This document shows, in pieces, positions 58,598 to 61,500 of a stretch of 64,000 nt of DNA. The notes beneath the pieces were generated by a model that saw only the letters and a program-made list of their open reading frames with translations, had not been told where the DNA came from and did no database searches. Source of the stretch: Rhodothermales bacterium (GTDB taxonomy: Bacteria; Bacteroidota; Rhodothermia; Rhodothermales; JANQRZ01); the NCBI GenBank assembly GCA_038232935.1, contig JBBSMX010000002.1, forward strand, positions 9,231 to 73,230. Direction: 5' to 3'. A program made the translations under genes and the position numbers. Position 1 is the first letter of the stretch. Each line of letters begins with the position of its first letter.

Positions 58598-61500
58598 TCA
58601 CACGGTCGATGCACGCGCGCACGTAGGCCGCCGTCTCCACGGCCGTGGGATCGTGGAGCAACCCCCCCCCTGCTTCACCCGAAGCTCCTCGAACCCACCT
58701 TGGGCCAGCTTGCTCCAGTCCGTGTGCAGGTTGTCCTTCATCTCATGTCGGATGAGGACGACCTCCCCAGCGTAGGGCTTCAGCTCGTACTCGTACATCA
58801 TGCGCTTGTACTCTTCGTCGACGTATTCCGAACGCAGGCGCTCGGGGATCGGCCGGTCCAAGGCGGCGAGAGCGCGGCTGTACTGCAACGGCAGGTTCGC
58901 TTTCCGCACCGCTTTGCTCACCCTGAAGCCGACGCTCCTCTTCGCCCATCGCCATGCGTGCGACAGCCCTTCCTCCCGAAGCCGAGCGAGCTGTTCGTCC
59001 CGCCGCTTGCGGCGTTTCTTCTCGGTCCGGTCGATGTCGCCGTTGATGATGCAGACGAGGCCTACTTCCGCACCCTGGGCGCGTAGTTGGCGCGCTATTT
59101 CGAGGGTGACCCGCCCCCCGATACACGCAGTCGCCATGAGATACGGCCCCTCCGGCTGAAACGCCCGCATCTCTTCGATGTACGCCGCCGCCATCTCCTC
59201 GACGCTTCGCAGCGTGAGCGGTCGCCCATCGTGGCCCGGCCCCTGGATGCCGTAGACCGGCTGGTCCTCCCCCAGGTGCTTCGCCAGCCGCTCGTAGCGG
59301 AGGATCTGGTTGGTGCCGTTGTGCGGGCAGAAGAGGACCGGGCGCGTGCCGTGGGGTTGAATAGGGACGAGGTACGACCACGCCTGCTCCGTCGCCGATC
59401 CGCTTCCGTCGCCGCTGTCGTCGAGTTGAACGGCGAGCATCGCGATCGTAGGAGACGTGAAGAGCACCGCGAGGGGCAGCTTCTTCCCGAACGTGCTCTC
59501 AATCCGCGCGAAGAGCTTGATGGCGAGGATCGAGTGGCCGCCGAGGTCGAAGAAGTTGCCGTGGATGCCGACCTGGTCGAGGTTGAGGAGGTCGCTCCAT
59601 ATCTCTGTGAGCGCCTGTTCGGCCTCGGTGCAAGGCGCTACGAACGCGGCCTCCGGCTCCTTCCGCGCCTCTTCGGGAGCGGGCAGCGCCTTGCGGTCCA
59701 CTTTGCCGTTCGGGGTGAGCGGCAACGTCTCCAGCGCCACGAGGGCCGTGGGCACCATGTAACCGGGGAGCCGCTCCACCAGAAGGTGCCGGACGTCGTC
59801 GATGAGTTGCTCCGTGGTGTTCCACGCCGGCACAGTCGGCTGCATCCGGCCCGACTCCTCACGCGGCGCGCCAGCCGTAGGCCGCGTGGCGTACAGCTTG
59901 AACAGCGGGGTCTCGGTGAGCTGCTCGTCCTGCTCCACCGTCAGCTCGAACCCGTGACGGCCGAGCATCTGCCGGATCTTCTCCAGCGCGCCGTCGGTGT
60001 CCTGCACCTCCATCGCCACCTGGCGGATCTTCGGCCAGTCGGCCTCGTCGATCCCTTCGAGCACGTCCAGCTCGCTCTTCTCGACATCGACCTTCAGCAG
60101 GTCTATCCGCTCGATCCCTTCGGCGCGCATCACCTCCGAGACCGTCCGCAGACGGCACGCGATCTGCTCGCTGGTGAGCCGCTGGTCCAGCAGCTCGTCG
60201 AGCTGTGCGCTGGAGATGGCTCCGTCCCCTCCGCTGGACTCACCGCTGAGGAAGGACTTGATGGCGGCGCGCTCGTCGACCCCGTCGGCGTAGCGGCCGG
60301 AGACGAGGGAGACGTGGGGGTAATAGGTGAAGACCGCGCTGCCGGTCTCGCGGCTGAGCCCACACTCGAACGGTTTCACGCTCGCGCCGTAGAGCGCCGC
60401 GTTGATGCGCAGCGCCTCGAAGGTGGCAGGGATCGGCTCGAAGGCGTAGACCCTCGCGTTGCGAACGGACCGGCTCACGAGGAGCGAGAACAGGCCGATG
60501 TTGGCTCCCACGTCGAACACGCATGCCCCGTCGTCGAGAGTAATGCCGTGCTGGAGGTAGGACTGCTCCTCGAAGATCTCTTTGAAGATGTACTCCGTCT
60601 CGCTCTGGTTCTGGTGGGCGATGTGCATGCCGTTGGGCAACTCGAAGCGTGTCCGACCCGCGAGCAGGTTCTCACGCTCCAGCCGAAGCTGCTGCCGCAC
60701 TGGCGCGGCCTCCTCCCGGTCCGGGACCAGATAGGCCGCCAGCCGCTGCTGGCCCGGCGCGTCTTCGCGCGCCATCACGACGGCCTCTTCCACCCCGGCG
60801 TGCTGCCGCAGCACGGCCTCGATCTCGCCCAGCTCGATGCGATAGCCGCGCAGCTTCACCTGATCGTCGGCGCGCCCGAGAAACTCGATGGTGCCGTCGG
60901 GCAGGGTGCGCCCGAGGTCGCCGGTCCGGTAGAGCCGGGCGTGCTCGCCCTCGTCGAATGGGTCGGCGACGAAGCGCTCGGCCGTCAGCTCGGGGCGACC
61001 GAGGTAGCCACGCGCGATGCCGTCTCCCCCGATGTAGAGTTCCCCGACCGTGCCCATCGGCACCGGCTGTTGCTGCTCGTTGAGGAGGTACACCCGCGCA
61101 TTCGGGATCGGCCGCCCGATGGGCACCGTCGCGACCCGCTCGCGGTCCTCCGGCCACGGCCGGGCGTCGTAGACCGTCGCCCAGACCGTGGCTTCGGTCG
61201 GGCCGTACTCGTTGAAGAGCGGCGTCTCGGGGAGGCGTTCGGCGTGGCGTTCCACGAGGTCCGGTGGGCACGCCTCGCCCGCGACGATGGCGGTGCGCAG
61301 CGAGGCCAGACTACGGGGCTCGATCTCGTCGAGGAGGAGCCGGTAGAGCGACGGGACGGCGAGGAGGTGCGAGACCTCGTACTGCGTGATGAGGGCGGCG
61401 AGCGGCTTCGGCTCGGCCGACACGTCGGGGGCGGGCACGACGAGGGTGCCGCCCTGCGCCAGCGTCCAGAACAGCCCCGCCACCGAGCTGTCGAACGAGA

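Follow-up and report, generated by a model that had tools for sequence, protein, structure and literature searches.

What does a cysteine in place of the catalytic serine tell us about how a nonribosomal peptide synthetase (NRPS) releases its product? The question is raised by the terminal NRPS gene in a 64,000-nucleotide stretch of a Rhodothermales bacterium genome (the window), which encodes a protein whose C-terminal thioesterase (TE) domain carries Cys1445 at the nucleophile elbow. A first-pass annotation of this DNA took Cys-for-Ser substitution in TEs to be a rare marker of β-lactone- or β-lactam-forming release and, with a β-hydroxylase candidate nearby, saw in it the feature that defines the chemistry of the locus. 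What it had seen stands: a cysteine on the elbow, a threonine at the first glycine of the motif, and a TauD-family gene upstream; orthologues keep the cysteine as well. The reading of that cysteine as a rare sign of β-lactone or β-lactam release is not supported. The domain is probably a functional Cys-type TE of the AB3403 kind that forms neither a lactone nor a lactam.

As deposited, the gene is an open reading frame (ORF) on the minus strand at 58598..63457 of the window, encoding 1619 residues; every gene and domain of the window located below is on the same strand. With one G restored, the gene spans 58584..63457, ends in a TGA stop at 58584-58586, and encodes 1624 residues. Pfam together with frame correction against a related contig (L015) and a related protein (P0003) gives the domain order C*-A-T-TE, in which C* is an interface-like condensation (C) domain and the His-specific adenylation (A) domain contains an FkbM-type methyltransferase (MT); T is the carrier domain. 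The TE domain occupies 58584..59389 (residues ~1357-1624 in the corrected frame). It follows the last carrier domain and scores 66 bits with PF00975 (cut-off 26.4; residues 1375-1497), and its AlphaFold2 model has an α/β core with a helical lid, the fold of a type I NRPS TE of the α/β-hydrolase class.

Cys1445 and the Lineage of the Thioesterase

Cys1445 is encoded by TGT, the complement of 59123-59125, as first annotated, and lies within GPYLMATACIGG. The surrounding elbow block, GPYLMATACIGGRVTLEIARQL, covers 59084-59149 (residues 1437-1458), takes in the originally annotated span of 59096-59140, and is identical in the orthologue P0003. Thr1443 replaces the first Gly of GxSxG, giving TxCxG; this position is also Thr in P0003 and is Gly in a more distant orthologue, P0022. 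The placement of the cysteine on the elbow is borne out both by alignment to solved TEs and by the structure model. A phmmer search of PDB chains pairs Cys1445 with the nucleophiles of 7crn (GWSLGS), a skyllamycin-type TE whose S-to-A mutant is 7dxo, of EntF, and of AB3403 (GGWCFGG). In the AlphaFold2 model, which was built for the frame-corrected TE with 34 relatives as the alignment and has a mean pLDDT of 92.1, Cys1445 opens the helix after TE strand 83-88.

Both orthologues carry Cys at this position; the Ser that the first-pass annotation named as a sign of an artefact was looked for in them and not found. P0003 (1628 residues) has a TE that is 85% identical to that of the window (83% as the search reported) and contains the same GPYLMATACIGG block; P0022 (1576 residues) has the same domain order and a TE that is 38% identical, and it reads AGFCIGG. 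P0003 was found by an exhaustive search of representative sequences, whereas a word-index search with the TE alone returned two weak matches and missed it. A scan of genome contigs yielded no close orthologue, the best TE relatives there being 34-37% identical, and neither a scan of metagenome contigs with the three-orthologue alignment nor a profile search added a further orthologue, which leaves a set of three. The position of Cys1445 at the elbow and its conservation among orthologues are thus matters of observation.

Cysteine is not rare among the relatives of this TE, contrary to what was first assumed. In an alignment of 153 sequences, consisting of the window TE and the 152 proteins nearest to it (150 cluster representatives at 50% identity and two earlier hits), the nucleophile column holds 94 Cys and 55 Ser; a second sample, from a profile search, holds 39 Cys and 16 Ser. 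Both counts are inflated, as the cysteine of the query is itself worth ~5 bits in a steeply packed score list and favors Cys-bearing matches, and the share of 61% was for this reason rejected as an unbiased figure. By a rough estimate, which was not computed, the true share in the branch is ~40-50%. Cys is thus common in this AB3403/EntF-like branch, about as frequent as Ser, and the Cys-type TEs of the clade follow many terminal residue codes, among them those for Gly, Val, Ile, Asn, and β-Ala.

The two biochemically characterized NRPS Cys-TEs make a β-lactone (ObiF) and a β-lactam (SulM), and the comparison with both, proposed in the first-pass annotation, places the window TE outside their lineage. 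Searched against the PDB, the family profile finds AB3403 first, over the full length of the carrier-TE didomain (PCP-TE; E=2.2e-77), and its match to ObiF1 (6N8E) is limited to the PCP and the first part of the TE. With the single sequence as query, the SulM TE (8W2C, identity confirmed) is found at E=0.008, and ObiF1 is not listed at E<=1. The top Foldseek matches of the TE model are 7crn, 4zxh, EntF, Pks13, FAS, and NocB, with a probability of 1.00 to the first three, and neither ObiF nor SulM is among the top 50. The TE is a member of the AB3403/EntF-like type I clade. According to the paper describing the SulM structure, the TEs of SulM and ObiF group with type II TEs and have their triad Asp at "position II," whereas AB3403, the only other structurally characterized NRPS TE with Cys, has its Asp at position I.

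Each of these enzymes resembles the window TE in part. AB3403 (ABBFA_003403 from Acinetobacter baumannii, PDB 4ZXH/4ZXI) is the best profile match in the PDB, has its Cys in GGWCFGG, and ends in the same C-A-T-TE order. However, it keeps the position I Asp, where the window TE has Asn and lacks the canonical His, and it has no MT, TauD enzyme, or C domain without the motif histidines; its own product and TE chemistry are uncharacterized. ObiF (obafluorin; ObiF1, 6N8E) shares the Cys nucleophile, acyl transfer by transthioesterification, and a β-hydroxy amino acid as the last residue, but its triad is RifR-like, the Asp being relocated and the His required, and it has no O-methyltransferase. 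The triad reported for ObiF is Cys1146, His1284, and Asp1254, and loss of the His or the Asp significantly diminishes activity. The SulM TE (sulfazecin β-lactam, 8W2C/8W2D) shares the Cys nucleophile; its Gln-Cys-Asn motif, position II Asp, Arg-rich pocket, Dap-specific last A domain, and sulfotransferase are not seen here. The window motif is Ala-Cys-Ile, and no sulfotransferase is encoded on the window side of the gene island described below or in the related contigs L015 and L016.

The window enzyme is therefore of a known kind, a Cys-type type I TE, but one without the family's triad His and Asp, and neither its lineage nor its motif is that of ObiF and SulM. Because of this lineage, the frequency of Cys, the missing canonical His, and the O-methyltransferase package considered below, a Cys at the TE nucleophile is not in itself a flag for β-lactone or β-lactam formation; genome-mining rules need the SulM/ObiF lineage and triad criteria as well.

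Loss of the Canonical Histidine and Selection on the Domain

With Cys widespread in the clade, the case for Cys1445 as the chemistry-defining oddity is weaker than first claimed, and the oddities lie instead in the missing catalytic His and the changed Asp position. The canonical His, in the VPGxH loop after the last strand, is present in 124 of the 153 aligned sequences. The window reads VKQGGGLLHDP in this loop, P0003 reads VEQNGGLLHDP, and P0022 reads IDGA-RLLSEP, with Gly, Gly, and Ala or a gap, respectively, in the His column; in the nearest sister subclade (P0025, P0028, and P0039) the loop is GPHRLLDEP. None of the three orthologues has the canonical catalytic His. At position I, the column that holds the triad Asp in most relatives, the window TE has Asn1472 (59042..59044), at the end of strand 109-116 in the model; P0003 likewise has Asn, and P0022 has Glu. 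Across the alignment, this column contains 101 D, 29 N, 12 E, 7 G, and 4 S.

The losses form a systematic pattern across the clade. Both the Asp and the His are kept in 52 of the 55 Ser-type TEs; among the Cys-type TEs, position I is often Asn, Glu, Gly, or Ser, and 26 lack the canonical His. That many Cys-type TEs have lost the Asp, the His, or both and are nonetheless conserved suggests a class of off-loading domains that, in place of a full triad, makes use of thiol-thioester exchange and a substrate nucleophile. Exchange between a thiol and a thioester needs little base catalysis. One coherent His-less subgroup was also noticed among the relatives P0003-P0206, reading VPG[RK][GY]...EPN.

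If a base is required, it could have been relocated. His1578 (TE His222; 58724..58726) lies in D-x-L-H-[TA]-D-W, in the loop after strand 7; all three orthologues have it, and the sister subclade that retains the canonical His does not. His1409 (TE His53; 59231..59233), in GHDGR, is likewise invariant in the three, in a column that is mostly Leu, Val, or Met in the rest of the clade. Either could be the relocated base, a suggestion made from conservation in sequence. Asp219 and Asp224, in the loop after strand 7, are also invariant in the three orthologous sequences. His246 of LLHDP was considered as a shifted catalytic His and rejected as a conserved solution; it is Ser in P0022. The candidates for what makes up for the missing His are thus a relocated His222 or His53, the imidazole of the substrate, a transfer-only role that needs no base, and an acceptor not encoded here.

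The substrate imidazole deserves separate mention. A TE whose chain ends in (β-methoxy)histidine might have shed its own His, with the imidazole of the substrate serving as general base or, in a variant of this idea, with the base moved to His222. We consider this proposal doubtful. It is consistent with the finding that, in the sampled clade, the canonical His is missing from all three TEs that come immediately after a His-activating module and is retained by P0073 (A-T-C-T-TE), the only protein in which the His module is not adjacent to the TE. An H64A subtilisin engineered by Carter and Wells in 1987 reportedly works by such substrate-assisted catalysis. Our literature search for His-less NRPS TEs or substrate-assisted TE catalysis found nothing relevant.

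The site of the missing His coincides with a defect in the deposited sequence. A 9-G run at 58662..58670, the longest homopolymer in the 64 kb, falls where the catalytic His of relatives is found (VPGxH aligns to VKQGGG), and there P0003 reads CAG AAC GGA GGG TTG where the window reads CAG GGG GGG GG-TTG, one base short. As a result of this -1 frameshift, the 25 residues that end the TE and form its C-terminal helix are read in the wrong frame, and the deposited 1619-residue protein has a garbled tail. The last 20 residues of the deposited ORF (CSTIPRPWRRRPTCARASTV) are not TE-like, whereas the +1 frame gives LLHDPTAVETAAYVRACIDRVIERG and a stop, a normal TE C-terminal helix; P0003 ends in VEQNGGLLHDPTAVETAAFVRACIDRVIERG. 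Because the source appears to be a metagenome-assembled contig, its GAPDH having a cluster mate annotated as belonging to a Rhodothermales MAG, a one-base homopolymer assembly error is plausible, and a real slip is also possible.

Selection on the domain is strong. Against the orthologous gene, which is 74% identical in DNA, dN/dS is 0.18 for the TE, the lowest value of any domain, and 0.06 for the 120-residue TE core around the Cys; the A core (0.27), the MT (0.22), and C* (0.47) are all less constrained. Identity to the orthologue is 86% over the C-terminal TE segment, which includes the frame-corrected tail. The TE is under strong purifying selection and is unlikely to be a decayed domain. 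This NRPS TE gene offers a clean, strongly constrained test case for off-loading without a full triad.

The Histidine Module and a Proposed Release Chemistry

The β-hydroxylase candidate of the first-pass annotation is a TauD/TfdA-family dioxygenase gene (PF02668) directly upstream of the NRPS gene; its 3′ part is at 63507..63998, where it runs off the window. The full-length enzyme in L015 has 324 residues with an HxE...H iron site, and the gene is also complete in L016. The domain that follows it, C* (62117..63406, residues 18-447; PF00668, 184 bits), reads PVLCADAAS in place of HHxxxDG (62984-63010, residues 150-158). C-like domains directly after a TauD enzyme, in the window, L015, L002, and L003, all lack both histidines of the motif, whereas all other C domains aligned across the loci have HH except one (L006, DHVVSDG). 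C* probably serves as a non-catalytic interface domain through which the hydroxylase is recruited; the term is said to have been defined by Reitz et al. in 2019 for a non-catalytic C-like domain that partners a TauD hydroxylase. As in siderophore β-hydroxylase cassettes (potashchelin C-TauD-C-A-PCP and the last module of cyanochelin), the TauD enzyme is flanked by a catalytic C domain and by a second, C-like one, which precedes the A domain of the hydroxylated residue. The present arrangement differs from those cassettes in its putatively O-methylating M domain embedded in the A domain and in having two modules only.

The adenylation core (61001..62059) gives the ten-position code DSALIAEVW(K), and the same extraction gave textbook codes for other A domains in the loci. 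A 2025 survey (PMC12283262) lists DSALIAEVWK as a His code and reports it at β-OH-His positions. Going by this code, the module activates His. In Pfam terms, AMP-binding covers residues 467-819, and the start of AMP-binding_C covers residues 878-924. Between A motifs a8 and a9, the FkbM-family MT is inserted (59942..60514, residues 982-1172; Pfam and TIGR01444, the latter at 97.7 bits), followed by the carrier (PCP) domain with GGHS (59432..59617, residues 1281-1342; Pfam PP-binding).

The MT shares 46-54% identity with embedded MTs of other loci, where the modules are for Ser, Thr, Tyr, Gln, and Glu, and the company these modules keep differs. The Gln module of L002 (DAWQFGLIQ; 8630-10714) and the Glu module of L003 (DAKDLGVVD; 8648-10774) both have a TauD gene and a C domain without the HH pair directly upstream. 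Around the Thr module of L005 (DFWSVGMVH), there is no TauD gene within about 8-10 kb; in L004, whose Tyr module reads DASTIAAIC, a TauD gene lies before the preceding Asn module; and the Ser module of L001 (DVWHISLVD) is on a locus of only 4 kb, on which the absence of TauD cannot be judged. The package of TauD enzyme, HH-less C domain, and MT is also found in mid-chain modules without a TE.

In the published classification, M domains inserted between a8 and a9 are side-chain O-methylases that act on carrier-bound Ser or Thr (type II) or Tyr (type III). The window MT, of the FkbM family, shares this insertion site with the O-methylating M domains of ColG and FrsG but differs from them in that its residue, His, has no native hydroxyl. 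Methylation would therefore depend on prior hydroxylation by the TauD enzyme, and likewise in the Gln and Glu modules of L002 and L003. A review of a8-a9 M domains makes no mention of histidine (Gln and Glu were not searched for there). On the simplest reading, the MT would methylate a side-chain hydroxyl that the TauD enzyme first supplies on His, Gln, and Glu. The new β-hydroxyl would then be capped, the last residue would be β-methoxy-His, and the oxygen would therefore not be free for β-lactone closure. As a recurring package, the TauD enzyme, HH-less C domain, and embedded O-methyltransferase predict β-methoxy His, Gln (L002), and Glu (L003); the literature we searched contained no description of such a route to β-methoxy amino acids.

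The window holds only part of the gene cluster. On two independent contigs, L015 and L016, it consists of three co-directional genes for an A-T-C protein, the TauD enzyme, and the C*-A(MT)-T-TE protein. The first of these proteins, of about 1020-1070 residues, has an intact HHIAVDG and the code DAFFIGVTY, which we take from published codes to be Ile/Val-like, and because it starts with its A domain the N terminus of the product should be free. We predict that the island makes an (Ile/Val)-(β-methoxy)His dipeptide. Module 1 would load Ile or Val with its amine free, and module 2 would load His onto its carrier domain, where the TauD enzyme, docked by way of the C-like domain that lacks the HH pair, would hydroxylate the β-carbon and the embedded FkbM-type MT would O-methylate the new hydroxyl. 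The intact C domain of the first protein would form the dipeptide, which would pass by thiol-thioester exchange to Cys1445, the putative acyl-accepting nucleophile of a functional terminal TE. Release would follow either through hydrolysis or through diketopiperazine formation, in which the free N-terminal amine attacks, and not by β-lactone closure. Both the O-methylation target and the mode of release are things we infer.

Several points weigh against this scheme. The strand-8 loop has no canonical His and position I holds Asn, so that a conventional triad mechanism is not a given. In the window copy, the frameshift comes ahead of the last helix, and there are only ~80 bp (58505-58583) where, in L015, a phosphopantetheinyl transferase (PPTase; ACPS) gene follows the NRPS gene (11046-11567), such that this copy might be inactive. 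If the MT acted on the imidazole, the β-hydroxyl would stay free. The group has no member with a known product.

That the TE closes a β-lactone, or a similar strained ring, on the β-hydroxyl installed by the TauD enzyme, as ObiF does for obafluorin, is quite unlikely. The TE has a Cys nucleophile, a TauD hydroxylase acts on the same module, both characterized NRPS Cys-TEs form β-lactones or β-lactams, and the want of a water-activating His would disfavor hydrolysis; however, the TE descends from a lineage other than that of ObiF and SulM, has A-C-I where SulM has Q-C-N, and lacks the canonical His, whereas ObiF1 loses much of its activity without His1284 or Asp1254. The frequency of Cys in a clade with varied terminal residues argues in the same direction, as does the MT, which is 54% identical to MTs of Ser/Thr modules and accompanies TauD and C* in mid-chain modules without a TE, pointing to capping of the β-hydroxyl. 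An ordinary Ser TE turned into a Cys TE by a sequencing or strain artefact can be set aside for practical purposes: TACIGG is identical in P0003, P0022 has FCIGG, Cys is frequent across the clade, and nothing was found that speaks for an artefact.

Erosion would bring the unusual motif, the absence of His and Asp, and the frameshift under a single cause, with the TE, or the whole gene in the source genome, decayed and non-functional. Conservation makes this unlikely. The same motif and His-less loop persist in an orthologue at 74% DNA identity, P0022 keeps the Cys and the operon with a TE only 38% identical, and no other domain of the protein is as constrained as the TE (dN/dS 0.18, core 0.06), although the TE has Thr for the first Gly, Asn for the Asp, and Gly for the His. 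The -1 shift in the 9-G run counts toward decay but is plausibly a one-base homopolymer error in a source that appears metagenome-assembled, and the corrected tail falls in a TE segment that is 86% identical to the orthologue. The lack of a PPTase gene in the window, unlike L015, also fits decay. A functional AB3403-type Cys TE remains the reading that we prefer.

Setting of the Gene Island

Neither the TauD enzyme nor the TE nor the C* domain receives a specific name from NCBIfam. The NRPS gene contains a further long homopolymer, a run of 8 C (plus strand) at 61849-61856, and the frame is unbroken across this run.

The surroundings of the cluster indicate how it came to its present place. 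A contig from a related metagenome-assembled genome, L017, is syntenic with the window over 44784-58479 and contains no NRPS gene; in its region 13170-13203, genes for an ABC ATPase and an ABC-2 permease overlap by four bases. In L015, a 10.3-kb NRPS block (1255-11589), made up of the three genes and the PPTase gene, lies exactly between the ABC ATPase and ABC-2 permease genes, and the synteny of the window with L017 breaks at the same point (58479-58590). Because the block lies between genes that overlap in L017, the cluster is an inserted island that splits a transporter operon.

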